A DNA stretch of 64,000 nucleotides from Patescibacteria group bacterium (GTDB taxonomy: Bacteria > Patescibacteriota > Patescibacteriia > PEXW01): assembly GCA_041671325.1 (NCBI GenBank), contig JBAZBR010000002.1:73978-137977 (forward strand), read 5' to 3'. The notes beneath the pieces are model-generated. The model was not told the DNA's origin and ran no database searches. It saw only the letters and a program-made list of their open reading frames with translations. The position numbers and the translations under genes are program-made. Every line of letters begins with the position of its first letter. Position 1 is the stretch's first letter. Below, in pieces: positions 35,787 through 49,635 of this stretch.

Positions 35787-35862
35787 TGGTGCGCCCAGGA
35801 GGAATCGAACCTCCAACCTTGGGCTTAAAAGGCCCCTGCTCTGCCAATTGAGCTATAGGCGC
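35787..35862 (-). tRNA. tRNA-Lys (anticodon TTT)
   Basis: Cloverleaf: acceptor GCGCCTA/TGGGCGC, D-arm GCTC..GAGC, anticodon loop CTTTTAA, T-arm GGAGG-TTCGATT-CCTCC, CCA encoded. Confidence 0.8.
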
Positions 35863-35959: not shown

Positions 35960-38623
35960 ATGGAGTTTTGTCGCGCCACCAACCTAAAAATTGACGAGGT
36001 TTTGCATAAATTTGACGCTTCCAGCAAGGGTTTGAATGGTTTGGAAGTTGATGAGCGTTTGAAGAATTATGGGGAAAACAAGCTGCCCAATAAGGAAGGC
36101 GTAAATTCCTTAAGAACCCTGGTCAGGCAATTTGAAAGCAGTCTGGTTATCATCCTTCTAGTTGCGGCAGTTATTAGTTTTGCCTTGGGCGATAAATTAG
36201 ACGGTTCAGTGATTTTGGCGGCTATTGCCTTGAACGTGGTCGTTGGGTTTTTCCAGGAGTACCGGGCAGAAAGGGCCTTATCAGCTTTGCAAAAAGTCGC
36301 CACTTTCACAGCCACGGTTTTGCGCGACGGCCGGGAGCGGGATATTGACGCCTCGAAAATCGTACCCGGTGATATTTTAGTTTTACACGCTGGCCAGAAA
36401 GTGGCGGCAGATTCCAGGCTTTTGGAACTGAATGAATTAGAAATAAATGAAGCGTCTTTGACCGGTGAATCAGAACCGGTCAACAAAACCACTCATATCT
36501 TGCCAGAGGCGGTGACCATATCTGAGCAAACCAATATGGTTTTTGCTGGCACGGTTATTGTCCGTGGTCGGGGTTTGGCCGTGGTTTGCCAAACCGGCTT
36601 AAACACTGAATTGGGGAAAATCGCCTCAATGCTCCAAACCACAATCACCGAAAAAACCCCCCTACAGAGGAAGCTGATAAAATTGAGTTGGGACATAACT
36701 GTGGTGATTTTAGCTGTGGCGCTTCTGGTATTCCTTTTCGGGATTTTTAAGCTATATGATGTTGAAGCCATGTTCACTACTTCGGTGGCCGTGGCCGTGG
36801 CTGCCATTCCCGAAGGTTTAGCAGTTGTTGTTACGGTAATTTTAGCTATCGGCATGCAACACATGTTAAAGCGCAGAGCATTAGCCAGATCCCTTTTAGC
36901 GGCAGAAGCTTTAGGCTCGATTACTATAATCGCCACAGATAAGACGGGTACTGTAACCGAAGGTTATATGCGGGTGGTGAAAATCCTGACGCACGACAAG
37001 CAAATAATCCATCCACGCCAGGATCCGGGCGAACCAGACCCCAGCGCCTTGATGGTCTTGAAAATTGCGGCTTTGGCTTCTGATGCCAGTATCGAGAATC
37101 CTGATCGGCCATTGGAAGAATGGGATATTCGGGGGAATTTGACCGAAAGGGCTTTGGTCAGGGCTGCGGCAGAAGTCGGTTTCAACTTATTAGCCTTGAG
37201 AAAGCAATACCCGCGCTTGGCTGACGTGCCTTTTGATTCCAGTCGAAGATTCATGGCGGTTTTGTGTGAAAAATCCGGTGATGGATATTTTGTTTTTGTA
37301 AAAGGCGCACCAGAAGTCTTGGTTGCCCATGCAAAATTCATTGATGAAAACGGCAAGCCAGTTTTATTGACTGCCGAAAGGAAAAAAGCTTTTGAAAACC
37401 AGGTTAAAGACATGAGTAGCCAGGGCTTGCGAGCCTTGGCTGTGGGTTTTCGCAAGCTTGACCATAAATATGAAGGAGGTTTTGATGAGGGGTATGCACT
37501 GGATAATTTAAGTTTGGTGGGCGTAGTTGGCATCCAAGATCCTTTACGTAAAGATGCTGCAGAAACTATTGAAACTTTAAAAAGGGCTGGCATTAAAACC
37601 GTCATGCTCACCGGTGATAATCAAGCCACAGCCCAAACCATTTCCGAGGGTTTAGGTTTGCTGAAAGATGGTGGTGAAGTCATGGACGGCAGGGAACTGG
37701 AAAAATATGACGAGGAGCATTTGAAAGATAGAGTTAAAGACGTAAAAGTTTTTGCCCGTGTCAGTCCTCGGGATAAGTTAAGGATTGTTGACGCCTGGCA
37801 AGCTCGCGGTGAAGTCGTGGCCATGACTGGCGATGGCGTCAATGATGCACCAGCCCTGAAAGCCGCCAATATTGGCGTGGCATTGGGTTCAGGTACGGAC
37901 GTGGCCAAGGAAGCAGCAGATTTAGTTTTACTGGATAACAGCCTTTCCACCATTGCTAATGCGGTTTTTGAAGGTCGGGTCATTTACCGCAACATGAAGC
38001 GGGTAATTTTATATTTAGTTGCCGGGTCTTTTGTGGAGTTGACGGTGGTAGTTGGCGCTTTGGTCATCGGCTGGCCCTTGCCTATGAGTGCCGCCCAAAT
38101 CCTCTGGATAAATTTGGTCACTGATTCTTTGCCGACCATAAGCATGACCCAAGAGCCGGCTGATCCTGGAATATTGGAAGAGCCACCGGTCAAACCGACC
38201 CGGCCGATTATCGGCAATTTCACCCGGTTTATGATGTTGTTATTAGCCTTAACTGTCGGTGGCGGCAGTCTTTTGCTTTTCTGGCTTGGCTGGTCAGATG
38301 GCCAAGCCCTGGCTTATGGCCGAACCATGGTTTTTACTTCCATCAGCGTCGTGCATTTAATGGTTGTTTTTACCACCCGAACCTTGAGGCGGCCAATGTA
38401 TTACACTTCGCCGTTTCATAATCCCTCCTTAATCTTTGCAGTTTTTATCTCCTTGGCTCTGCAATTAGTGGCAGTGTATACATCTTTTGGCCAAAGGGTT
38501 TTTGGGACTATACCTTTAGGCATAAGTGATTGGGCGTTAATTCTCTTGCTTGGTGTGATAACCATCGTCATTTGTGAATTTAGCAAGATTTGGTTTAGGC
38601 GGAGACAAATAGCCGAAGCTTAA
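35960..38623 (+). CDS. P-type cation-transporting ATPase (type II, Ca/Mg-like)
   Basis: DKTGTVTE phosphorylation site, MLTGDN, GDGVNDAPAL. Confidence 0.9.
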   Translation: MEFCRATNLKIDEVLHKFDASSKGLNGLEVDERLKNYGENKLPNKEGVNSLRTLVRQFESSLVIILLVAAVISFALGDKLDGSVILAAIALNVVVGFFQEYRAERALSALQKVATFTATVLRDGRERDIDASKIVPGDILVLHAGQKVAADSRLLELNELEINEASLTGESEPVNKTTHILPEAVTISEQTNMVFAGTVIVRGRGLAVVCQTGLNTELGKIASMLQTTITEKTPLQRKLIKLSWDITVVILAVALLVFLFGIFKLYDVEAMFTTSVAVAVAAIPEGLAVVVTVILAIGMQHMLKRRALARSLLAAEALGSITIIATDKTGTVTEGYMRVVKILTHDKQIIHPRQDPGEPDPSALMVLKIAALASDASIENPDRPLEEWDIRGNLTERALVRAAAEVGFNLLALRKQYPRLADVPFDSSRRFMAVLCEKSGDGYFVFVKGAPEVLVAHAKFIDENGKPVLLTAERKKAFENQVKDMSSQGLRALAVGFRKLDHKYEGGFDEGYALDNLSLVGVVGIQDPLRKDAAETIETLKRAGIKTVMLTGDNQATAQTISEGLGLLKDGGEVMDGRELEKYDEEHLKDRVKDVKVFARVSPRDKLRIVDAWQARGEVVAMTGDGVNDAPALKAANIGVALGSGTDVAKEAADLVLLDNSLSTIANAVFEGRVIYRNMKRVILYLVAGSFVELTVVVGALVIGWPLPMSAAQILWINLVTDSLPTISMTQEPADPGILEEPPVKPTRPIIGNFTRFMMLLLALTVGGGSLLLFWLGWSDGQALAYGRTMVFTSISVVHLMVVFTTRTLRRPMYYTSPFHNPSLIFAVFISLALQLVAVYTSFGQRVFGTIPLGISDWALILLLGVITIVICEFSKIWFRRRQIAEA

Positions 38624-38689: not shown

Positions 38690-38830
38690 AATTATTTTCC
38701 CCTCTCATATAAAGGAGAGGGTGGCCGGAGGCCGGGTGAGGTTGGCTAAAATTAATTACTATTATTCCGATATTCCGAGTACCCTCACCCCCTTCCCTCT
38801 CCCAGTGGGAGAGGGGGTGGTTTTATAACA
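38690..38830 (+). promoter_or_regulatory. Cluster of GC-rich hairpins in the asnS upstream region
   Basis: CCCTCTC/GAGAGGG; GGGTGAGG/CCTCACCC; CCTCTCCC/GGGAGAGG followed by GGTGGTTTTAT. Confidence 0.45.
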
Positions 38831-38904
38831 TATTCATATATTTTTGTATTTGCCAAAAAGCCTAAAAATTAGTATAGTTAAGGGGCAATTATTTATTAAT
38901 TCCC

Positions 38905-40200
38905 ATGACAGTTAAAATTTCCGAGATTGCCAAATATGTCGGTAAGGAGGTAACCATCCAAGGCTGGATTGCTAATCTTCGCTCATCAGGCAAGATTGTT
39001 TTTTTGCAATTGCGAGATGGCTCTACTGGGATTTTGCAAACCGTAATTGCTGCAGATTCAATCAGCCAAACTGATTTTGAAGCAGCTAAAGCCTTGACAA
39101 CAGAATCCTCGGTTGAAGTCAACGGAAAAGTTATTGCTGAACCGCGTTCGTCAGGTGGATTTGAAATGCAGGCTAAAGCCATTAAAATAATCCAAAAATC
39201 AGAAGAATACCCAATTGGTAAAAAAGAACACGGGCCGGAATTTTTACTAGACAATCGGCATTTGTGGCTGCGAGCCCAAAGGCAAGTAGCCATTTTGCGG
39301 GTTCGGGATTCAATCATCTGGGCTTTGCGGGAGTTTTTCCGCCAGGAAGGCTTTGTCATGACTGATACGCCAATTTTAACCCCAACCTCTTGCGAAGGCA
39401 CTACCACTTTGTTTGGAACTGAATATTTTGGTGAAAAAGCCTACCTTTCCCAATCTGGCCAATTGTATTTAGAGGCCTTATGTATGGCTCTGGGCAAGGT
39501 TTATGATTTTGGCCCGACTTTTCGGGCGGAAAAATCCAAGACCCGCCGGCATTTGACTGAATTCTGGATGCTGGATGCGGAAATGGCTTATATGGATTTA
39601 AATCAAAGCATTGATCTGCAAGAACGCATGGTGGTTTATGTCATTAAAAAAGTTTTACTTGAAAGGAAAAAGGAACTGGAAATTTTGGAAAGGGACACTA
39701 AGCCATTGGAAAAAGTTGCTGAAGGCGGGTTTATTAAAATGACTTATGATGAAACTTTGGTTGAATTGAAAAAACTTGGTTCAGACATCAAATGGGGGAC
39801 AGATTTGGGCAATGACGATGAAACCATTTTGACCCAAGCTCATGACAAGCCTATTTTTGTCACCAATTATCCGCTGGAGATAAAAGCTTTTTACATGAAA
39901 CCGGATCCCAAAAATCCCAAAACCGCCTTGTGTGCTGACATGCTGGCGCCCGAAGGCTATGGGGAAGTTATCGGCGGCTCGCAGAGAATTGACGATTTGA
40001 AATTGCTGGAGCAAAGGTTGAAGGAGCACAAACTGCCAAAAAAGGATTTTGAGTGGTATTTAGATTTGCGCAGATATGGCTCAGTGCCGCATTCGGGTTT
40101 TGGCATTGGCTTGGAGCGGACTGTGACCTGGCTTTGCGGATTGAAACATGTTCGTGAGGCGATTCCTTTTCCCAGACTGATAAACCGGTTAACGCCTTAA
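38905..40200 (+). CDS. asnS: Asparaginyl-tRNA synthetase
   Basis: Class IIb; FRAEKSKTRRHLTEFWMLDAEMAY matches the AsnRS motif 2 region. Confidence 0.85.
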   Translation: MTVKISEIAKYVGKEVTIQGWIANLRSSGKIVFLQLRDGSTGILQTVIAADSISQTDFEAAKALTTESSVEVNGKVIAEPRSSGGFEMQAKAIKIIQKSEEYPIGKKEHGPEFLLDNRHLWLRAQRQVAILRVRDSIIWALREFFRQEGFVMTDTPILTPTSCEGTTTLFGTEYFGEKAYLSQSGQLYLEALCMALGKVYDFGPTFRAEKSKTRRHLTEFWMLDAEMAYMDLNQSIDLQERMVVYVIKKVLLERKKELEILERDTKPLEKVAEGGFIKMTYDETLVELKKLGSDIKWGTDLGNDDETILTQAHDKPIFVTNYPLEIKAFYMKPDPKNPKTALCADMLAPEGYGEVIGGSQRIDDLKLLEQRLKEHKLPKKDFEWYLDLRRYGSVPHSGFGIGLERTVTWLCGLKHVREAIPFPRLINRLTP

Positions 40201-40202
40201 AT

Positions 40203-40634
40203 ATGTCAAAAAAGAAAATAATTTTTTTAGTTATCATCTCATTGATACTTATTGGAATTATATTAATTTGGTTCTTTATAATAAATAATAGAAATTTAAA
40301 TAATAAAACTTCTTCTTGCCCTCATAATTTTGGTTGGAGCAATAGTCCATGTACCTATATTCATGTTTTACCAAAACAGGAAGTTATTGATTCAATAAAT
40401 AGTTGTCAGGTTTATTATTTTGATTCTGATATTGGTATTATTTTCACCGCGAATAATGGTTGTAAAAAGGGAAGTAAGTTTTTAAATGCGGATTCGGGTG
40501 TTACTTATTTTAACGCATACGGCCAATACATTACTGAATGTAATGCTTTTGCAGAAGGTCCTTTTCCTAGCGATAAATGCACTTGGTTAGAGAAGTTAAC
40601 AGGAAAAACCCTTAGCACAAAAGTAGGCGAATAA
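40203..40634 (+). CDS. Membrane-anchored Cys-rich small protein
   Basis: N-terminal TM then Cys-rich 100-aa domain. Confidence 0.6.
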   Translation: MSKKKIIFLVIISLILIGIILIWFFIINNRNLNNKTSSCPHNFGWSNSPCTYIHVLPKQEVIDSINSCQVYYFDSDIGIIFTANNGCKKGSKFLNADSGVTYFNAYGQYITECNAFAEGPFPSDKCTWLEKLTGKTLSTKVGE

Positions 40635-40653
40635 AAATTAATTTTTTAAACAC

Positions 40654-42060
40654 ATGAAAAATCCCAAAGGTTTTCTCCCCATCGCCGCAATTATTATTAT
40701 CATAGTGGTTGCTGCCCTCGCCGCAGGCGGTTCGTATTATTACACCAAGACCCTGAATAAAAACACCAATTCCGTATTAAATACCAACATTGCAGTTGTG
40801 GATGAAAATACTAATGCAGTCGTTAACACAAATACAACAGTTGTAAATGGGAATACAAACGTAACCGTAAATTCAAACGGCAATTTGAATACCAATACTG
40901 TGGTCTTAAATACCAATACCGCCGTGAATTTAAATACCAATACGAGTACCATCAAATATCCTGGGCAAGAATGGCCAGGGTTGACTGATAACTCGGTTTT
41001 ATATCAAAAATACTCGAGCACAGCATCTGACGAGAAGGTCTATACTGTCCAACCTGGGCAGCAACCCAGCGTATATTTTACAATTCCAACGGGTTATTCA
41101 TTGGTTTCAAATGAGAGCGGCCGGCTTATTTGGTTGGAGAAAGATAATTATTTATATATTTATGATATTCAAAAAGGGAGCACCAGAAAAACTTCTTTGC
41201 CCGCTTTAATCGCTGGTGAGGTGCGTTTTGAATCTGCAAGACCCACTGTTTACTCAACAGATGGCGTAGAGGTGATTATTCAGTACAGTCTCTTTGATAA
41301 GAATTCCGCCGCATATAATAGTGAATTTGCGGGGCCTAATCCAATTTCCACTAAACGTTACCGTTATAATATTACTACCAACACCTATACCCCTGGAGAA
41401 AACATGAGCGGGATATTTTATTCTTTATGGGATCGTAAATTAAATATTGGCTATAACCATTTAGCCGGTGAAGGGGTTGGTTCCAAGGCCCCTATCGAAA
41501 AGACTTTCTTTGATACCGGAAACACGGAAGACTCTGCGGATTATGGGAATAATTCTACTCCTGCTTTTTCACAAGATGGAAAGTGGGTTGCCGTACCTGA
41601 ACCATCTAAGGCGCCACTGAAAATATATATATTTTCTCTCCCAGATATAAAAAATCCGGTTAAAACCCTCACCTTACCTACCGTGAAAGATACGCCGCCA
41701 GTCACAAATACCTTAGGGTATATTTACGACTTCGAATGGACAACGGATGATCAAAATTTAATCCTTTCATTTAACCACTCTATTTTCGTAATCAATGTGC
41801 AAACAGAAAAAGCCACAAAGGTTTTCGATAATACCCAAAATGATTCAAGTTATACTGGATGGAGTTATTATCCAGAGATATCCGGATCAAATAGGTATAT
41901 TTATTTTGTTGATTACAGCAATTCTAATCCAGCAACCCTCAAACCAGAAAATAACATCGATGAATTAAAGGCGTATGACATCACAACCGGGAAAACTACA
42001 ATTCTATTAAAAACAACTGGAGAAACAAATATTCAATTAATAGGATTTGATAATTTCTAG
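40654..42060 (+). CDS. Paralog 1 of membrane-anchored surface protein family (conserved N-terminal TM + N/T-rich linker, divergent C-terminus)
   Basis: MKNPKGFLPIAAIIIIIVVAALAAGGSYYYTK + NTN repeats shared with 42097 and 43392 genes. Confidence 0.75.
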   Translation: MKNPKGFLPIAAIIIIIVVAALAAGGSYYYTKTLNKNTNSVLNTNIAVVDENTNAVVNTNTTVVNGNTNVTVNSNGNLNTNTVVLNTNTAVNLNTNTSTIKYPGQEWPGLTDNSVLYQKYSSTASDEKVYTVQPGQQPSVYFTIPTGYSLVSNESGRLIWLEKDNYLYIYDIQKGSTRKTSLPALIAGEVRFESARPTVYSTDGVEVIIQYSLFDKNSAAYNSEFAGPNPISTKRYRYNITTNTYTPGENMSGIFYSLWDRKLNIGYNHLAGEGVGSKAPIEKTFFDTGNTEDSADYGNNSTPAFSQDGKWVAVPEPSKAPLKIYIFSLPDIKNPVKTLTLPTVKDTPPVTNTLGYIYDFEWTTDDQNLILSFNHSIFVINVQTEKATKVFDNTQNDSSYTGWSYYPEISGSNRYIYFVDYSNSNPATLKPENNIDELKAYDITTGKTTILLKTTGETNIQLIGFDNF

Positions 42061-42096
42061 TAAAATTTTATTAAGCAAATTTTTAAAATTATAATT

Positions 42097-43287
42097 ATGA
42101 AAAATCCCACAGGTTTTCTCCCCATCGCCGCTATTATAATAATCGTAGTAGTTGCCGCTGTTGTGGCAGGCGGTTCGTATTATTACACCAAATCCTTAAA
42201 TAAAAACACGAATACGGTTGTAAATACAAATGTTGCGATGGTGAATGAAAATACTAATGCGGTTGTTAATACAAACACAACAGTTGTAAATGGGAATACA
42301 AACGTAACCGTAAATTCAAACGGCAATTTGAATACCAATACAGTAATCGTTAACTCAAATACAAATACCGTGGTTAATTCAAATACTAATTCTGATGCAA
42401 CCGCTGGGTGGAAGACGTATACAAATGCAAAACAGGGTTACTCCGTGAAGTATCCAAGTAATTGGGTTACGCAGGTTCAAAACACAAATGGTGGTGAGGT
42501 AGCAAATGGCAATATAACAACCTTTTGGAGTAAGCCAAACTACAAAGATCTTATACCAGAAGGTACTGAGTGGGTACCAACAGATACACTTTATTATTTT
42601 CGTGTCCATTACCAAGACGAAAGTAGTGCAGCAAATGCGGTAGATCCGAACACCAAGAAACTCTCTAGTGAAGCAATAACCGTTGGTGGGATCTCTGGTT
42701 TAAAAGAGGCATATCAGGGTGCGTATGGAAAATGGACGGTTGTTTATGTAACCAAAAATGGCATAAAGTATGGTTTATATTTACCAGACAAAACCGCCGA
42801 ACAACAAGCACATGCATCAACCATCCTTTCCACCTTCACCTTCCTCGACCAAACCGTCGGGTGGAAGACGTATACGAATACAGAATATGGTTTTTCATTT
42901 AAGTACCCTGCTTCTTGGAAAGAGACAGATTACACCGCTTCGGCTGATTCTCCACTGAACAGCGATGGTGTGAAATTTGAGGATTCAGCTGGGAAAGCTG
43001 GTTCGTTTTACTGGATGCAGGGCGGATATGTACCAACCCAAGACGGTCAGTGGGATTCGACGACAACATCATTGACGGTTGGTGGTCGAACAGCTTCACA
43101 AGTCAGAATGACACCTAAAGCCGGTCAACAGTGGGCAGGTGGAGAACCAAAGCCTCGTGCGGTGGTGAGTCTAACTAGTAATCCGACAACTTGGGGGAGT
43201 AATGCAAGTATGGGTTTAGTGCAAGGCTCTGAAAAGTCTTGGGTAACAGTAGATACTATTTTGTCCACCTTCACTTTTACGAAATAA
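42097..43287 (+). CDS. Paralog 2; C-terminal region has two WKTYTN-x-YGFS-x-KYP-x-W repeats
   Basis: N-terminal ~88 aa near-identical to paralogs; ILSTFTF C-terminal motif. Confidence 0.75.
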   Translation: MKNPTGFLPIAAIIIIVVVAAVVAGGSYYYTKSLNKNTNTVVNTNVAMVNENTNAVVNTNTTVVNGNTNVTVNSNGNLNTNTVIVNSNTNTVVNSNTNSDATAGWKTYTNAKQGYSVKYPSNWVTQVQNTNGGEVANGNITTFWSKPNYKDLIPEGTEWVPTDTLYYFRVHYQDESSAANAVDPNTKKLSSEAITVGGISGLKEAYQGAYGKWTVVYVTKNGIKYGLYLPDKTAEQQAHASTILSTFTFLDQTVGWKTYTNTEYGFSFKYPASWKETDYTASADSPLNSDGVKFEDSAGKAGSFYWMQGGYVPTQDGQWDSTTTSLTVGGRTASQVRMTPKAGQQWAGGEPKPRAVVSLTSNPTTWGSNASMGLVQGSEKSWVTVDTILSTFTFTK

Positions 43288-43294
43288 ATTTTTA

Positions 43295-43351
43295 ATGAGC
43301 CGTATTTTAGTCAAAGACGCAACAAAAAGAATTAACGAACCAATCTTGTAA
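43295..43351 (+). pseudogene. Duplicated remnant of the aspS 5' end (MSRILVKDATKRINEPIL*)
   Basis: ~75% nt identity to aspS start (44487: MKRILVKDTVNKINEPVLL). Confidence 0.6.
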
Positions 43352-43391
43352 ATTGGATGACAAAATTTTAGTTAAATTAATATTAAAGAAT

Positions 43392-44477
43392 ATGAAAAAC
43401 CCCAAAGGTTTTCTCCCCATCGCCGCAATTATTATAATCATAGTGGTTGCTGCCCTCGCCGCAGGCGGTTCTTACTATTACACAAAGACCCTGAATAAAA
43501 ACACTAATACCGTGTTAAATACCAATATTGCGGTGGTGAATGAAAATACTAATGCGGTTGTTAATACAAATACAACAGTTGTAAATGGAAATACAAACGT
43601 AACCATGAATTCAAACGGCAATTTGAATACCAATACTGTGGTCGTCAACTCAAACACTAATGTCGTGGTTAATTCAAATACAAATTCTGATGTAACCGCT
43701 GGGTGGAAGACATATACAAGCACAAAATATGGTTTTTCTCTGAAATATCCTCTAACCATGCGTGTTTTAGAGGTAAACGAAACGAGTGGAATAATCCTTA
43801 GGGTAGGTGTTGAGGGGTCGGCAAATGGGGATAATGTTTTGGTTTATAATAAAAGTTCAAATGCTGGAATTCCTTATAGCACAGTTAAATCAGAAAGTGG
43901 TAAGTCTTTCGTTATTTCTCATGTTGGCGTTGAGGCCGATCAAATTCTTTCCACCTTTGTTTTCCTCGATCAAACCGCTGGGTGGAAGACGTATACAAAT
44001 TCTGAATATGGTTGGACTATGAAATATCCGAATGATTGGACGGTCAATAATTCTTATCAGACAACAGATCCGAATGACATTTTTGAAACCCCGATTCGCA
44101 CAACGACTTTCACAAATCCCAACAAGTATTACAGGTTGCTTGTCGGGATAAAAAAGAAAACCGATTCCGGTAGTATTGTCCCACGGACTGGGATTGGAGC
44201 GGGAGAATTTATAAAAGGCGATACAGTTTTAATTGGTAGCACTTCAATGACTTTATGGAATTTAAATTATAATAATTTGACTTCTGAGATTTTTAATTAC
44301 AATCCAAGTACAAATTCCAATTTTGAAATTAGCAATTTTCAATTTATTGCATATTTCGATTGTGGTACAGCAGCAACCATAGAAACAATAAAGCGTTGCG
44401 ATCAAACAAATTTATCAGTAATACCAGAATATAAAACTTTTAAACTTATTCTTGGTTCATTAGTATTGCCTAATTAA
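43392..44477 (+). CDS. Paralog 3; two WKTYT-x-YG-x-KYP repeats
   Basis: Start at MKNPKGF (the track ORF begins 39 nt upstream). Confidence 0.75.
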   Translation: MKNPKGFLPIAAIIIIIVVAALAAGGSYYYTKTLNKNTNTVLNTNIAVVNENTNAVVNTNTTVVNGNTNVTMNSNGNLNTNTVVVNSNTNVVVNSNTNSDVTAGWKTYTSTKYGFSLKYPLTMRVLEVNETSGIILRVGVEGSANGDNVLVYNKSSNAGIPYSTVKSESGKSFVISHVGVEADQILSTFVFLDQTAGWKTYTNSEYGWTMKYPNDWTVNNSYQTTDPNDIFETPIRTTTFTNPNKYYRLLVGIKKKTDSGSIVPRTGIGAGEFIKGDTVLIGSTSMTLWNLNYNNLTSEIFNYNPSTNSNFEISNFQFIAYFDCGTAATIETIKRCDQTNLSVIPEYKTFKLILGSLVLPN

Positions 44478-44486
44478 AAACGTTAA

Positions 44487-45878
44487 ATGAAACGAATTCT
44501 CGTAAAAGACACCGTCAATAAAATCAATGAACCAGTCTTGTTAAAAGGCTGGGTGCATAATCATCGGCGTTTGGGCAAGATGGTCTTTGTGGATTTGCGG
44601 GATCGTTCTGGGATTATCCAAGTTTTGTTTATGGATAAAATGGTGGAAAAGGCCAATCAGATTCGGCCAGAGTGGGTGGTAGAAATTACAGGAAAGGTGG
44701 TGGAACGTGGTGGCAAGAATAAAAATCAAAGCTCGCCCACCGGGGGAGTGGAAATCCATGCCACGGATTTGAAAGTCTTATCAGAAGCCTTAACCCCGCC
44801 ATTCCCCGTAAATGATGAAACCAAAGCCCAGGAGACTTCTGAAGATCTGCGCATGAAATATCGTTATGTGGATTTACGCCGACCCAGCATGCGGCAAAAT
44901 TTAGTCTTGCGGGCGAAGGTTAACTATTTCATCAGGAATTTTTTGACGAGCGAGGATTTTTTGGAAATCGAAACTCCTTTCTTGACCAAGGGTACGCCTG
45001 AAGGCGCCAGGGAATATATTGTACCAGCCAGGAATTTTCCAGGTAAATTTTATGTCTTGCCACAAAGCCCGCAACAGTTCAAACAATTATTGATGGTATC
45101 TGGCATTGAAAAATACTTCCAATTGGCCAAATGCTTCCGGGATGAAGACCAAAGAGCTGACCGCCAGCCGGAATTCACCCAGTTGGATTTGGAAATAAGT
45201 TTTACGGATCGGGAAGAAGTTTTGGCTTTAATTGAGAAAATGATCATTAATTTAGTCAAAGAAGTTTGTCCAGAAAAACATATTACCCAAACCCCTTTCC
45301 CCAGGATCACCTATAAAGAGGCCATGGAAAAATATAAAAGCGATAAGCCGGATATTCGAAAAGACAAAAACGAAAAAAATGAATTAGGCTTTGCTTTTAT
45401 TATTGATTTTCCCTTGTTCGAATATTCAGAAGCTGAAAAAAAATTAGTCCCTAGCCATCATCTTTTCACTTCACCTCAAGACCCTGAAGCTTTTTTAAAG
45501 GGCGAGGTTAAACCCGAAAATGCAATATCAAAGCAATATGATCTGGCTTTGAATGGTTTTGAAGTGGCTGGGGGCAGTATTCGGATCCATGATTGGAAAT
45601 TACAGGAAAAGATTTTTGAAATCTTGAAAATCGGCAAGGAAGAAGCGGAAAAACGGTTTGGCCACATGCAAAAAGCCTTCAGTTATGGCGTTCCTCCGCA
45701 TGGCGGCATTGCCATGGGTATGGATAGGTTAGTTGCCATTTTGGCCGGGGAAAGCAATATCCGCGAAATCATGGCTTTTCCCAAAACTAATGACGCCAAA
45801 GATCTGATGATGGAAGCGCCTACCGAATTGCCTAAAAAACAACTGGATGAGGCGCATATCCAGATTAAAAAGAAATAA
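44487..45878 (+). CDS. aspS: Aspartyl-tRNA synthetase (short form lacking GAD insertion)
   Basis: CFRDEDQRADRQPEFTQLDLEISF motif 2; GGSIRIH; 463 aa. Confidence 0.88.
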   Translation: MKRILVKDTVNKINEPVLLKGWVHNHRRLGKMVFVDLRDRSGIIQVLFMDKMVEKANQIRPEWVVEITGKVVERGGKNKNQSSPTGGVEIHATDLKVLSEALTPPFPVNDETKAQETSEDLRMKYRYVDLRRPSMRQNLVLRAKVNYFIRNFLTSEDFLEIETPFLTKGTPEGAREYIVPARNFPGKFYVLPQSPQQFKQLLMVSGIEKYFQLAKCFRDEDQRADRQPEFTQLDLEISFTDREEVLALIEKMIINLVKEVCPEKHITQTPFPRITYKEAMEKYKSDKPDIRKDKNEKNELGFAFIIDFPLFEYSEAEKKLVPSHHLFTSPQDPEAFLKGEVKPENAISKQYDLALNGFEVAGGSIRIHDWKLQEKIFEILKIGKEEAEKRFGHMQKAFSYGVPPHGGIAMGMDRLVAILAGESNIREIMAFPKTNDAKDLMMEAPTELPKKQLDEAHIQIKKK

Positions 45879-45879
45879 G

Positions 45880-46170
45880 ATGCTTTCCCCTTTGCAAAAA
45901 TTCATAATTAAAGAATGCCAAGGCGTGAAAGTCACCAAAAGAGTTTTATTTAAGAAGTTTTATACCAAATCCGCCAAAGTTCCCAATGCCGACGACCAGC
46001 AAAATGCTATTACTAAATCCTTGGAGCGGATTATTGATAAGGGTTTGATGATCGGTTATGGCCGAAGGACCCCGAAAAAATGGTATATTGAAGGGGTAAA
46101 ACTCACGCCCAAAGGCAGGAAAATTGTTAAAACCTTGCTTGGCAAACAGCAAAAATTCCCTTTTAAATAA
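45880..46170 (+). CDS. Small basic hypothetical protein (96 aa)
   Basis: ATG 2 nt after aspS stop; Lys/Arg-rich. Confidence 0.5.
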   Translation: MLSPLQKFIIKECQGVKVTKRVLFKKFYTKSAKVPNADDQQNAITKSLERIIDKGLMIGYGRRTPKKWYIEGVKLTPKGRKIVKTLLGKQQKFPFK

Positions 46171-46193
46171 TTAATTATTTTTTATTAAACCCT

Positions 46194-48074
46194 ATGTTAA
46201 AAAAACCGTTTAAAGCAATTGTCGCCCTTTTTTCGGTTTTGGTTTTGGTATTGCCCATGGTGACTAAAGCCGATGGCATGATGGTAGTCCCGCCAAATTA
46301 CTGGATGCGGGAAGACACCCAAAAAGCCGTGGTTTTTTATGATAAAGGTGTTGAGTCTTTGATCCTTTCCATAACCTTCCAGGGCAATGCCAATGACTTT
46401 GGTTGGATTGTACCAACCCCAACCAAGCCAACGGTAACCAAAGGTTCGGATGAAATATTTACCAATTTACAAAAATTAACCAGCACACGTTCAGATTATC
46501 CTGTGTCTGCTTTTGATTTAGGCTTTAGTGGCAGTGAAAAACAAACCAGCGGCGTATCGGTTATTGAAACCAAACAAGTTGATTATTATGATGTGACAAT
46601 TTTAACCGCTACAGATAAAGACGCCTTAACCAAATGGTTTGCGGATAACAAGTATAATTACCCGGAATCTGCCTCTTATATTTTAAACACTTATATCCAG
46701 AATAACTGGTATTTTGTGGCCATGAAGATCAATCCGCAGAGTTTGGAATGGAGCAATGTTACCAGCAGTTTACGGACTGGCCATGCCACGCCCGTGGTCA
46801 TGCAGTTTGCCACTGAAAATATAGTTTATCCTTTAAAAATTTCCACGGTTGTCAGCCAGGCGAATACCAATACTAATGCAAACGCCAACAGCAACACTAA
46901 TACCCCGGTAATTGTTTATGATGCCTCAAATTTCACTTTTGGGCCTGGGAAATTTGGCAAGGCTATAAATATTTCAGGCAGTAAGAATTTATCATATACT
47001 GCTGGAACTGAATTTCCTTATAATAGCGGGACGATTGAAGCCCAAATCAATATCCAGCCCTGGGAAAGCGGAGGTTACCGAAATATTTTGTCAGTCGGGG
47101 ATAGCAAGGGTTCAAATGTTTTTCAATTACGTTTGGCTAAAGCCTATTCTTCTGATACTACAGCAAATCCAGAAGAAACCATTCAGTTTGTTTGGTATAA
47201 AAGTACTGGAAGTAGCTTGATTTGGCGGACTACAGCGTCAACCCCTGTTACGCCAAACACTTGGCATCATGTGGCGGTCACCTGGACAAGCGGCCAAAAA
47301 CCCCAGATTTATTTAGATGGGGTGGCTATGGCAACTAGCGCTGCTTATAATGCAACCACCTGGTTAGGGCAAAGCATCAGCAATGGTTCATTCCAGGTAA
47401 TTGGCAGCCGTTTGGGCAAGTATGAATATTTAAACGGTTATCTAGATGAATACATAGTCCGAAACCAAGCGATAACCGCTACTGAAATTGCAGAAGATGC
47501 CAAGACAGTTATGCCGACTAACCCGACAGTCTCGGCGAAATATGACTCTAACGTGGTCTATTACGCGAATTTTGATGACAATATCAAACTGGAAGATGCC
47601 GCTGGTGTTGAATACAGCCAAAAAGCCGTAGTTATCGTCCAACCAAAGACAATCACCCTTCCTGATTATTATTCAAAATCCCAATACATAACCCTTTATG
47701 TGATTGCTAATGAGCGCAAGGATGCTACGGGTTTTTCCACGACTTATGCCAATTGGTTCAGCAAAAAATCTTTAGAAGATTTAGCTTTTTCTTCAACAGG
47801 TTCGCCCTTACTGGCCGTGAGTGGTAAAAAAATGTTTGTGACAGTCATGAACCGGACAATATCCTCTGGTCAGAACTTGGATGATGTTTTTTTCCGGACG
47901 GCCAGTAGCCAAAGCCTTTTGGGTACTGCTCCAGATTATACGGAAAATGGGACTTTAGCTTTTTGGATATTTTTGGGTGCGGTTTCATTAATTTCAATTG
48001 TTTTAATCTTAATTTTGATTTTGTGGAACCGTCGAACCGTAGCGCCACCAACCAGCCCCCTACCAAAGCTTTAA
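46194..48074 (+). CDS. Secreted/membrane-anchored protein: DUF2330-like N-terminal domain with embedded LamG/concanavalin-like domain, C-terminal TM
   Basis: Signal peptide; VVPP...DFGWIVPTP (DUF2330 signature); WHHVAVTW...IYLDGV (LamG-like); C-terminal hydrophobic helix. Confidence 0.65.
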   Translation: MLKKPFKAIVALFSVLVLVLPMVTKADGMMVVPPNYWMREDTQKAVVFYDKGVESLILSITFQGNANDFGWIVPTPTKPTVTKGSDEIFTNLQKLTSTRSDYPVSAFDLGFSGSEKQTSGVSVIETKQVDYYDVTILTATDKDALTKWFADNKYNYPESASYILNTYIQNNWYFVAMKINPQSLEWSNVTSSLRTGHATPVVMQFATENIVYPLKISTVVSQANTNTNANANSNTNTPVIVYDASNFTFGPGKFGKAINISGSKNLSYTAGTEFPYNSGTIEAQINIQPWESGGYRNILSVGDSKGSNVFQLRLAKAYSSDTTANPEETIQFVWYKSTGSSLIWRTTASTPVTPNTWHHVAVTWTSGQKPQIYLDGVAMATSAAYNATTWLGQSISNGSFQVIGSRLGKYEYLNGYLDEYIVRNQAITATEIAEDAKTVMPTNPTVSAKYDSNVVYYANFDDNIKLEDAAGVEYSQKAVVIVQPKTITLPDYYSKSQYITLYVIANERKDATGFSTTYANWFSKKSLEDLAFSSTGSPLLAVSGKKMFVTVMNRTISSGQNLDDVFFRTASSQSLLGTAPDYTENGTLAFWIFLGAVSLISIVLILILILWNRRTVAPPTSPLPKL

Positions 48075-48097
48075 ATTTATTTATTTAATTTAAAAAT

Positions 48098-48625
48098 ATG
48101 GACAATATAAATATTTTGCCCACCACCCCAGCACCAATGCCGCCAAAGAAAAAGTCTGTGCATAGCCCGCTTTCAATTTTGTTCATGATTATCTTGACTG
48201 GTGTTTTGATAATCTTGGTGGAAAAAGTCATGCACGATGTGAATCGTTCATTTAACCCGTATTCCGCTTATTCAGTCAGCAAGACTTCTACGACTTACCG
48301 GGCTTATTCCCAGGACAAATACGAAGCTGGCCGGCTATTGATCCATACGGGCATAACCTTGCCAATCCTTTTGGGCGCTTTATTATTTTACCTTTTGCAT
48401 GAAAGAAAATCCGGCAGTGGCGCACATGTGGTTTCCTGGTCTTTTTTTGCCACAGCCTTTTGGCTTTGCATCCGGCTTTTAGGTGAAATGTTCTATTTCC
48501 TAATCAGAAAATACGAAAGCTTGGGAGTTTACGTGGTTTTAATTGTCTTGGCGGCCGTCTTAATCTGGTTGGTAGTGGCCTTGCAAAAGCGTTATGCCCA
48601 CCAAAGGGAGATGCACTTGAATTAA
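48098..48625 (+). CDS. Hypothetical 4-TM membrane protein
   Basis: Hydrophobicity. Confidence 0.6.
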   Translation: MDNINILPTTPAPMPPKKKSVHSPLSILFMIILTGVLIILVEKVMHDVNRSFNPYSAYSVSKTSTTYRAYSQDKYEAGRLLIHTGITLPILLGALLFYLLHERKSGSGAHVVSWSFFATAFWLCIRLLGEMFYFLIRKYESLGVYVVLIVLAAVLIWLVVALQKRYAHQREMHLN

Positions 48626-48626
48626 T

Positions 48627-48974
48627 ATGTACACTGTTCAAAGAGTTTATATTTGGAATTGGGCCAAACTTTGCGCCTTGTTTAATATTATTGGCATCTT
48701 AATATACGCCGTGATATTTGTATTTATTGGATTTTTGGGAGGTAATTTTGACTTAGCAGTATTTGGGCACGGTTCTTTAAGCGGATTTGGAGTCATATTA
48801 GCCATGGTTCTGCTTATTGGAATATTGTCGGGTTTGGGTTTTGGCGCTTTAATTGCCGCCATCTACAACGGGCTTTCTAAAGTTTTTGGCCCTATTGAGG
48901 TTGAAATTAGTTTTGAGCCGGAAAACATTCCAGAAGCGGCGCCTGAAGTTAATTCACAAATCCAACAAACTTAA
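48627..48974 (+). CDS. Small membrane protein with YNxLSxxFGxI motif
   Basis: ALIAAIYNGLSKVFGPIEVEI. Confidence 0.6.
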   Translation: MYTVQRVYIWNWAKLCALFNIIGILIYAVIFVFIGFLGGNFDLAVFGHGSLSGFGVILAMVLLIGILSGLGFGALIAAIYNGLSKVFGPIEVEISFEPENIPEAAPEVNSQIQQT

Positions 48975-48976
48975 AT

Positions 48977-49618
48977 ATGTACTCTCTTGATAGGTTTAAA
49001 GTTTTGTCAGTTGGTAAGGCTTTTGCAATAGTCGGTTTGGTCGGCGGGATTTTTGGAGGGCTATGGGTGTTTTTGACTTTTTCTAATGTGGCCTGCATGC
49101 AAGTTGATGTCCAACCCTACCAGACAAGCGGATTGACTTTGGCCCCAGACTATTGTTCAACACCGGGTTTGGCCACCAGATTGCTGGTCTTGTTTATTGC
49201 TTGGCTGGCCTGCATTGCCTTGGCCTTTGTTATGGGGATTATTTATGCCGCTTTGTATAATTGGTTGTCCGAATATTTTGGGAAAATTAAGGTAAGGTTG
49301 AATTTAAACCAAAAAGGCGCTTACGAAATAACCCATTTCCAGGTTTGGTCAGTGGTTAAGAACCTGGCCATCATTTGGCTGATAGTCGGTTTAATTGTTA
49401 ACGTGCTTGTGATTATTTTTTCTATTAATTTCTTTGGTGCATTCTTAAGTTTCGGAAGCTCAAATGTCTTTTATGAGTCAAGTTTATTTGCTTTTTTAAT
49501 TGGTTGGTTAGGTTCGGCAATCGCATTTGTAGGCTTAACCGCCTTAATTACCTGGCTTTATAATTTACTCAGCCGATTTGTCGGCCATATTACCATTCAT
49601 TTAGGCGTAAAATCTTAA
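48977..49618 (+). CDS. Membrane protein, internal duplication of the preceding unit (two YNxLSxxFGxI motifs)
   Basis: IIYAALYNWLSEYFGKIKVRL and ALITWLYNLLSRFVGHITIHL. Confidence 0.6.
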   Translation: MYSLDRFKVLSVGKAFAIVGLVGGIFGGLWVFLTFSNVACMQVDVQPYQTSGLTLAPDYCSTPGLATRLLVLFIAWLACIALAFVMGIIYAALYNWLSEYFGKIKVRLNLNQKGAYEITHFQVWSVVKNLAIIWLIVGLIVNVLVIIFSINFFGAFLSFGSSNVFYESSLFAFLIGWLGSAIAFVGLTALITWLYNLLSRFVGHITIHLGVKS

Positions 49619-49635
49619 TCTTAATTTAAAAAATT

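Follow-up and report, generated by a model that had tools for sequence, protein, structure and literature searches.

The window analysed here, a stretch of 64,000 nucleotides (nt) from a Patescibacteria metagenome-assembled genome (MAG), carries three tandem paralogs (P1, P2 and P3) in the slot between the asparagine--tRNA ligase gene asnS and the aspartate--tRNA ligase gene aspS. Positions 43288-43391, which are the exact gap from the P2 stop codon (43287) to the ATG of P3, hold a short fragment that, judged from its sequence, derives from the 5' end of aspS and is dead. We consider it very likely that this remnant is a former aspS start, stranded when a unit of about 1.2 kb was joined to aspS at codon ~22, and that it has decayed neutrally since. 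The array would have grown by the addition of already-diverged cassettes at its aspS-proximal end.

The aspS remnant and the old gene boundary

The ATG at 43295 opens an 18-codon open reading frame (ORF), MSRILVKDATKRINEPIL, which is closed by TAA at 43349-43351. The live aspS gene (ATG 44487) starts MKRILVKDTVNKINEPVLLKGW. Set in register against aspS positions 44487-44543, the remnant is identical at 40/57 nt (70.2%) and 12/18 amino acids (aa), and it contains INEP(V/I)L, a motif otherwise specific to the aspS of a small clade. The likeness extends beyond the ORF on both sides. The local alignment spans 43286 to 43359 (51/74 matches), beginning about 9 nt before the ATG, and runs on past the stop to ~43360, so that ~22 codons or ~70 nt are covered in all. 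Around the stop the remnant reads TTG TAA ATT GGA TGA where aspS reads TTG TTA AAA GGC TGG. It therefore has two in-frame stops, TAA at codon 19, derived by a TTA to TAA change, and TGA at codon 22. An earlier note on this DNA, made from the sequence alone, described 43295-43351 as a diverged duplicate of the first 18 aspS codons, with ~75% nt identity, whose start had decayed. The duplicate and its decay are borne out; the similarity is real, at an identity of 70%.

The match is far better than expected by chance. It scores 27-28, whereas the spacer, when shuffled 5000 times with its dinucleotides preserved, scored 8.9 on average (standard deviation 1.45) and 17 at most. The runner-up site in the whole 64-kb window, on both strands, scores 15. 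A separate repeat search also pairs the remnant with the aspS start (family D6, spacing 1192).

The slot holds fewer paralogs in related genomes, as the earlier note had anticipated, and each has a single aspS start. SURF_31 (L001), whose aspS is 93% identical to that of the window, has one paralog, a P3 ortholog (asnS-P3type-aspS), and the window carries an extra stretch relative to it (40202-43389). Kerfeldbacteria CG08 (L168-170; aspS 89% identical) likewise has one paralog, in this case a P1 ortholog (asnS-P1type-aspS). A single P1 ortholog also occupies the slot in the short contig L166, and probably in the P0017 contig, whose P1 is the nearest to that of the window. L171 (aspS 72% identical) has a different PsbP-like gene of 531 aa in the slot. 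In L172-174 (71% identical) the slot is empty and the asnS stop overlaps the aspS start. The remnant is absent from SURF_31, CG08, L166, L171 and L172-174, with zero or one paralog each, and there is no room for it because their spacers are only 0-13 nt long. No second aspS gene was found in any relative examined. Genome and metagenome scans with aspS returned one close relative (L001), the remaining matches being at most 59% identical, and a protein search with aspS residues 1-150 returned distant fragments only.

The features at and around the remnant are as follows.

40654..42060, plus strand: paralog 1 (P1), 468 aa; common N-terminal module with a different body; ortholog of the single slot gene of CG08, L166 and P0017
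42097..43287, plus strand: paralog 2 (P2), 396 aa; made up of a membrane anchor, an N/T-rich linker and a pair of PsbP-like domains
43288..43294, plus strand: 7-nt spacer from the P2 stop to the remnant ATG; equal in length and similar in sequence to the spacer between the PsbP-like gene and aspS in L171
43295..43351, plus strand: aspS 5' remnant, 18 codons plus TAA, corresponding to aspS codons 1-19
43337..43360, plus strand: joint zone, alignable both to aspS codons 15-22 and to the end of P1 in CG08 (AACCAATATCCTGTTAATAGGC, 3' end of the gene)
43352..43360, plus strand: remnant tail, codons 20-22 (ATT GGA TGA against AAA GGC TGG), with the second in-frame stop; aspS similarity ends here
43361..43391, plus strand: spacer upstream of P3 (IGb), not aspS-derived; includes a 15-nt stretch that agrees at 14 positions with the 3' flank of P1 in CG08
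43392..44477, plus strand: paralog 3 (P3), 361 aa; adjoins aspS; ortholog of the single paralog of SURF_31
44487..45878, plus strand: functional aspS, 463 aa; NCBIfam NF001750 aspartate--tRNA ligase, 637 bits (cut-off 443)
44487-44552, plus strand: live counterpart of the remnant, the 5' bases of aspS

The boundary between P2 and the remnant resembles a live one. The last 24 nt of P2, the TAA, 7 nt, the ATG and the remnant form a 96-nt ungapped match to the paralog end, TAA, 7 nt, ATG and aspS of L171; this match scores 42, which was reached by 0/3000 shuffles, the best of them scoring 23. No such match to the L171 paralog-aspS boundary is seen where P3 ends and a 9-nt spacer leads to aspS. 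The colinearity of P2 and the remnant with the live L171 boundary argues that the remnant was once a working aspS start. On this evidence the P2-remnant junction would be the old paralog-aspS gene boundary, which makes the unit nearest aspS (spacer, P3 and new aspS start) the added one. The proposal that the footprint gives the direction in which the array grew is thus upheld.

Recombination among the paralogs and with related lineages

Recombination can be seen directly at the locus. The sequences involved are listed here.

40653-40952, 42096-42395 and 43391-43690, plus strand: 300-nt 5' modules of the paralogs, three copies (repeat family D1)
43650..45890 (L001 5180-7390), plus strand: recombinant tract, P3 body and aspS, common to the SURF_31 lineage; leaves out the remnant

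The 5' modules of the paralogs (first 300 nt) are 85-90% identical to each other within the genome, versus 72-79% to their orthologs. The bodies follow the orthologs. P3 is 90.6% identical in aa to its SURF_31 ortholog over the body and 69.5% over the N-terminal 105 aa; the figures for P1 and P0017 are 91.5% for the body and 69% for the N-terminal part. These values show that gene conversion inside this genome has made the 5' modules alike, a case of concerted evolution.

Up to 43619 the window and SURF_31 are 68-75% identical; the figure rises to 82-97% from ~43650 to ~45890, and falls to 70-72% beyond. One end of the exchanged tract falls within the conserved 5' module and the other at the stop of aspS. 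With L172 as the outgroup, the informative sites of aspS group the window with SURF_31 (48) over CG08 (26). For seven flanking genes (ATPase, asnS, ScpA, ScpB, S11 peptidase, TIM and FBA) the same comparison groups the window with CG08 (379) over SURF_31 (198), and the discordance between aspS and the flanking genes is significant (Fisher p = 7e-7). The discordant tree suggested that the window had imported P3 and aspS from a SURF_31-like donor. This was rejected because of the direction of the exchange and the extent of the tract, which excludes the remnant. The outgroup-scaled protein distance to CG08 is 0.109 for the SURF_31 aspS, where ~0.25 is expected, and 0.122 for that of the window, where ~0.13 is expected. 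Since the SURF_31 aspS is too close and that of the window is as expected, the distances indicate that SURF_31 was the recipient, from a window-like lineage, and that the window's aspS is native.

The remnant is older than this exchange. At codons 5 and 3 it has TTA and CGT, the same as CG08; L171 has TTA but AGA at codon 3. The aspS genes of the window and SURF_31 share the derived CTC (codon 5) and CGA (codon 3). The ancestral TTA/CGT in the remnant implies that it split off before the exchange between the window and SURF_31. The exchange is thus a separate and later event, because its tract excludes the remnant and the remnant keeps TTA/CGT. The branch specific to the remnant carries 14-15 changes in 57 nt, and the synonymous divergence (dS) between these genomes is 0.9-1.3. 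The changes on the remnant branch are of the same order as the per-lineage synonymous divergence, so the event is old. The ratio of non-synonymous to synonymous divergence (dN/dS) of the remnant is 0.19-0.35, against ~0.5 expected for one neutral branch, a difference that is not significant (binomial ~0.13). Divergence of the remnant under protein constraint, suspected from several conserved codons with synonymous differences alone, was considered and dropped: the three codon positions carry 3, 4 and 7 of the remnant-specific changes (3:4:7), and the shortage of non-synonymous ones is not significant.

Origin of the unit next to aspS

If the P3 unit had been copied from the P2 unit when the remnant was formed, the two units should be related over their whole length. 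The P2 unit (42058-43364) was aligned to the P3 unit (43359-44556), with the following nt identities.

Spacer: 72%
First ~400 nt of the paralog: 77-95%
First domain: 40-55%
Inter-domain linker (~100 nt): ~80%
Second domain: 30-45%, random level
Remnant: 68-70%

Homology over the whole unit, with a divergence no greater than that of the remnant, fails for the P2 and P3 units. The proteins give the same picture: residues 1-105 are 89% identical, the aligned domain parts are 23% and 22%, and identity is ~22% past residue 133 and 22% over residues 263-396. The P2 body has nearer relatives in other organisms (52-69% identity) than in P3. It is 52% identical to P0002, and its last domain is 69% identical to P0004, both of them secG neighbours in other Patescibacteria. 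The first domain of P3 is 54% identical to P0044, which likewise is in a secG-uvrC slot. The P2 and P3 bodies are not recent copies of one another: they are ~22% identical, and the unconstrained remnant still shares 70% with its source. Either they differed already at the time of the joint or one of them was exchanged afterwards. These identities indicate that the P2 and P3 bodies diverged long before the clade existed, and that they would have entered the slot as different cassettes, or that one replaced the other's twin.

In other Patescibacteria (L162-L165, L167, L175-L176) the same protein family is found between secG and uvrC, as a single gene or a tandem pair. Its members there share the MxxPKGFxPIA...GGSYYYTK anchor, the N/T-rich linker and PsbP-like domains.

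In the events that we propose, the resident aspS start (~22 codons and the 7-nt leader) would originally have followed P2. A unit of ~1.2 kb, consisting of a spacer, P3 and a fresh aspS start, would have recombined in at the aspS-proximal end of the array, and the old start would have been cut from the gene body at the joint, ~43360. The stranded start would then have decayed neutrally, by TTA to TAA, TGG to TGA and ~25% further substitutions. As to where the unit came from, unequal exchange with a diverged haplotype of the same slot, one carrying P3 next to aspS, has in our view close to an even chance of being correct. One crossover would have been homologous, in or beyond aspS, and the other illegitimate or guided by short homology, joining the resident aspS at codon ~22 to the sequence just upstream of the donor's P3. 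We prefer this version because one event suffices and the unlike bodies are explained. If a P1-P2-aspS strain with an aspS starting MSRILVKDATKRINEPILLKGW existed, a diverged haplotype would be the source.

Positions 43337-43360 are a candidate short-homology patch at the crossover. The end of the CG08 P1 gene matches the remnant and following spacer with a score of 18 (reached by 3/2000 shuffles), and the similarity of the P1 end to the aspS 5' end is not significant. Against the CG08 P1 flank, the 30 nt that follow the joint score 13 (26/3000 shuffles, p ~0.01 before multiple-test correction); against the window's own P1-P2 spacer they score 12, which was reached by 677/3000 shuffles and is not significant. 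A crossover between the 3' flank of a P1 gene and aspS codons 15-22, within the short-homology patch, is plausible from these matches.

Two other resemblances in this region were rejected. Homology between the spacer upstream of P3 and the P1-P2 spacer is convincing by eye, and no better than chance in shuffles. An older aspS remnant in the P1 3' end or the P1-P2 spacer was likewise not significant (scores 9-11, shuffle mean 9). The P1 genes of CG08 and the window differ in frame at their 3' ends, where the CG08 ortholog (L168 7900-7987) ends in NHRRNQYPVNRPKSILV and the window P1 (41990-42060) ends in TTGETNIQLIGFDNF, each followed by the stop. One of these genes has undergone a frameshift close to its 3' end.

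Several points weigh against the explanation proposed above. No P2-live aspS or P1-P3-aspS haplotype was found, and the proposed parents are hypothetical. The nearest relatives of the P2 body belong to other organisms and lie there in a different slot, secG-uvrC. On its left side the added unit has an ill-defined border: the 30 nt past the joint resemble the window's own P1-P2 spacer no more than chance would allow, and the CG08 P1 flank at p ~0.01 before multiple-test correction. The phylogenetic placement of the remnant rests on only ~70 nt. The distances within the SURF_31 tract indicate that this exchange does not itself document an import into the window genome. Finally, the deficit of non-synonymous changes, which is not significant, would point to an allele that had diverged while functional as source.

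A duplication between sister chromosomes comes close behind, though we put it at less than an even chance. A tandem duplication of the spacer, paralog and aspS codons 1-22 would have been followed by replacement of the body of one copy by another cassette. The replacement would have gone by homologous recombination, with the conserved 5' module as one arm and aspS (or the remnant) as the second. All of the evidence at the joint fits this equally well, the SURF_31 tract shows a cassette replacement with exactly such arms, and by distance the window's aspS looks native. It requires two events, however, where one is enough, and an intermediate with two alike paralogs was not found. The replacement must also have reached exactly to the aspS start, as the 3' end of P3 and its 9-nt spacer are without a trace of a P2-type boundary.

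It is rather unlikely that the locus once had two full aspS genes, from a whole-gene duplication or a foreign P3-aspS block, and that the upstream copy was deleted from codon ~23 so that 43360 is a deletion scar. The end structure would be the same, reduced genomes shed redundant genes fast, and the low dN/dS of the remnant would fit a spell as a working second copy. This needs an extra step, however; relatives with two aspS genes are lacking, and the sequence after the joint resembles a paralog flank and not the region downstream of aspS.

The earlier note proposed that the array had expanded by tandem duplication of a paralog plus the aspS 5' end. That the joint marks the place where such a unit was added stands; plain copying followed by decay does not, with P2 and P3 at ~22% identity and the remnant at 70%. 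A single intrachromosomal duplication of this kind, with P2 and P3 diverging by ordinary mutation, is quite improbable. It would put a remnant in the place and orientation observed, with a patch alignable with both parents at the joint as in unequal exchange between short repeats, and relatives do have fewer paralogs and one aspS start. But point mutation cannot erase coding sequence faster than a pseudogene, and here the domains are at random nt identity while a neutral remnant is at 70%. The similarity of P2 to foreign proteins also makes the P2/P3 split older than the clade. The 77-95% identity of the first ~400 nt, which would fit recent copying, is accounted for by homogenisation within the genome.

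It is very improbable that the 18-codon ORF functions as an upstream ORF or leader peptide controlling P3 or aspS. The ORF is intact from ATG to stop, with 7 nt between it and the stop before it and 40 nt between it and the ATG that follows, and it has fewer non-synonymous differences than expected (not significant). It is absent from every relative, however, and has a single Asp codon. The 3:4:7 distribution of its changes over codon positions is not significant, and NCBI annotates no gene there, the accession numbers of P2 and P3 being consecutive. The RNA fold of the remnant spacer is no better than that of shuffles (z = +1.7). We found no terminators in 43288-43391 and no excess of terminators or promoters. 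An Rfam scan of 42900-44700 gave only a chance snoRNA match (E = 0.21, 20 bits against a threshold of 95) and no T-box or aminoacyl-tRNA synthetase leader. Nothing suggests a function for the remnant.

Chance likeness, for which the AT-rich local sequence (window G+C ~40%) might speak, or an assembly chimera can practically be dismissed: 0/5000 shuffles reached the observed score (best 17 versus 27-28), gene order is identical in three independent assemblies, with the same five proteins under consecutive accession numbers in two NCBI MAGs and one ENA contig, and a chimera would yield an exact copy, so that the locus structure is not an assembly artefact because a decayed copy cannot come from mis-assembly.

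The asnS-aspS slot and its known counterparts

The left part of the locus contains the following genes.

35960-38623: P-type ATPase gene, left of asnS
38905..40200, plus strand: asnS, the left border of the variable slot; NCBIfam NF003037 asparagine--tRNA ligase, 574 bits (cut-off 414)
40203..40634, plus strand: small membrane protein rich in Cys, 143 aa; opens the insert in comparison with the relatives; starts 2 nt past the asnS stop

None of the relatives has a counterpart of the 143-aa protein in the slot, and Pfam gave no hit for it. A membrane anchor and an N/T-rich linker are common to the paralogs. P2 and P3 carry two PsbP-like domains apiece, with a Pfam PsbP_2 match of 32 bits for P2, over the cut-off of 27, and of 21.9 bits for P3, which is under it. 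A Pfam search of P1 gave no hit, and its body is unrelated to those of P2 and P3. The Pfam families concerned are PF18933 and PF01789, and PF18933 is present in many paralog homologs according to precomputed tables. The start of P3 is the ATG at 43392, as supported by the gene call and synteny, and not the TTG at 43353 given in the ORF-finder list.

Terminator-like sites were not found in any inter-gene spacer from asnS to aspS. The genes from asnS to aspS are probably co-transcribed because of this, and the arrangement suggests one transcription unit. There is a strong terminator-like hairpin 3' of the ATPase gene (38793-38817) and a promoter-like site (10/12) ahead of asnS (38850-38878). A tRNA-Lys(ttt) lies upstream of the ATPase gene (35787-35862, minus strand). 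The aspS product is only 463 aa long and matches the 590-aa bacterial model in two stretches; it is therefore without the insertion domain of the typical bacterial aspartyl-tRNA synthetase, and the same is true of the relatives found. A second indel hot spot (46177-49624) begins 300 nt downstream of aspS and includes a 626-aa DUF2330/Laminin_G_3 protein and three small ORFs. These genes are largely kept in Kerfeldbacteria CG08 (L168 9702-12415) and absent from SURF_31, where orf96 is followed directly by a tRNA_edit gene, with no counterpart of 46177-49624.

Bacterial tandem duplications made by unequal exchange between short repeats are known to carry a truncated gene copy where the units join. 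The remnant is like such copies in being a partial, dead, same-orientation, head-to-tail copy of the gene that holds the duplication end-point, with a short patch at the joint that can be aligned with both parents. It is unlike them in that the adjoining units are alike only in the 300-400-nt 5' module and the ~100-nt linker. The structure here is also old and fixed, with ~30% divergence, and not a recent, unstable amplification. The three 5' modules, with their higher identity within the genome (85-90%) than to orthologs (72-79%), are like those of tandem paralogs under concerted evolution. Conversion accounts for the modules but not for the remnant, which is less like its parent than the modules are like each other.

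The arrays of type VI secretion systems (T6SS), Rhs proteins and contact-dependent inhibition (CDI) offer a second comparison. [quoted passage not shown] New modules in such arrays enter via a conserved anchor and leave orphan genes and gene ends behind (PMC5361080). The asnS-aspS locus resembles these arrays in having a conserved anchor beside variable cassettes that are common to the same slot of other strains, in additions that shift older modules aside and leave gene remnants, and in homologous cassette replacement, here the SURF_31 tract, as the commoner event. It differs in that the anchor is a downstream housekeeping gene, so that older units are pushed upstream in mirror image, and in having a single remnant. 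The cassettes also differ: they are membrane-anchored and PsbP-like, and Pfam gives no hint of toxin-immunity pairs (PsbP_2/PsbP for P2 and P3; none for P1 and the 143-aa protein). The likeness is best regarded as an analogy of process, not as membership.

The same slot holds different cassettes in different strains. P1 and P3 types each occur alone elsewhere, and no other genome was seen to have a P2 type in the asnS-aspS slot. In this clade of Patescibacteria the gap between asnS and aspS, both of them essential genes, could be a dedicated cassette site in which variable PsbP-like extracellular domains, held between the 5' anchor module and aspS, are swapped between lineages and sometimes stacked. 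We regard this as tentative and on present evidence somewhat doubtful. If true, the site would be formally like the Rhs/T6SS displacement arrays, but for an ultra-small episymbiont's surface proteins, and no scar of stacking would have been seen before the aspS remnant.

The footprint itself is real, informative and of a known kind. For annotation, 43295-43351 is not to be called a gene, and P3 starts at 43392. As a dated marker, the remnant shows the P2-aspS boundary to be old and the unit adjoining aspS to be later. It sets an upper age limit for the event, and this limit excludes divergence after duplication as the source of the paralog diversity. The wider pattern may be worth more work: in a reduced genome, two synthetase genes flank a cassette slot where lineages exchange sequence and paralogs evolve in concert. 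Taken with the relatives, the remnant shows a candidate-phyla-radiation bacterium with a reduced genome exchanging cassettes with related lineages through recombination anchored in housekeeping genes, homogenising the 5' ends of its paralogs and tolerating short pseudogene fragments.

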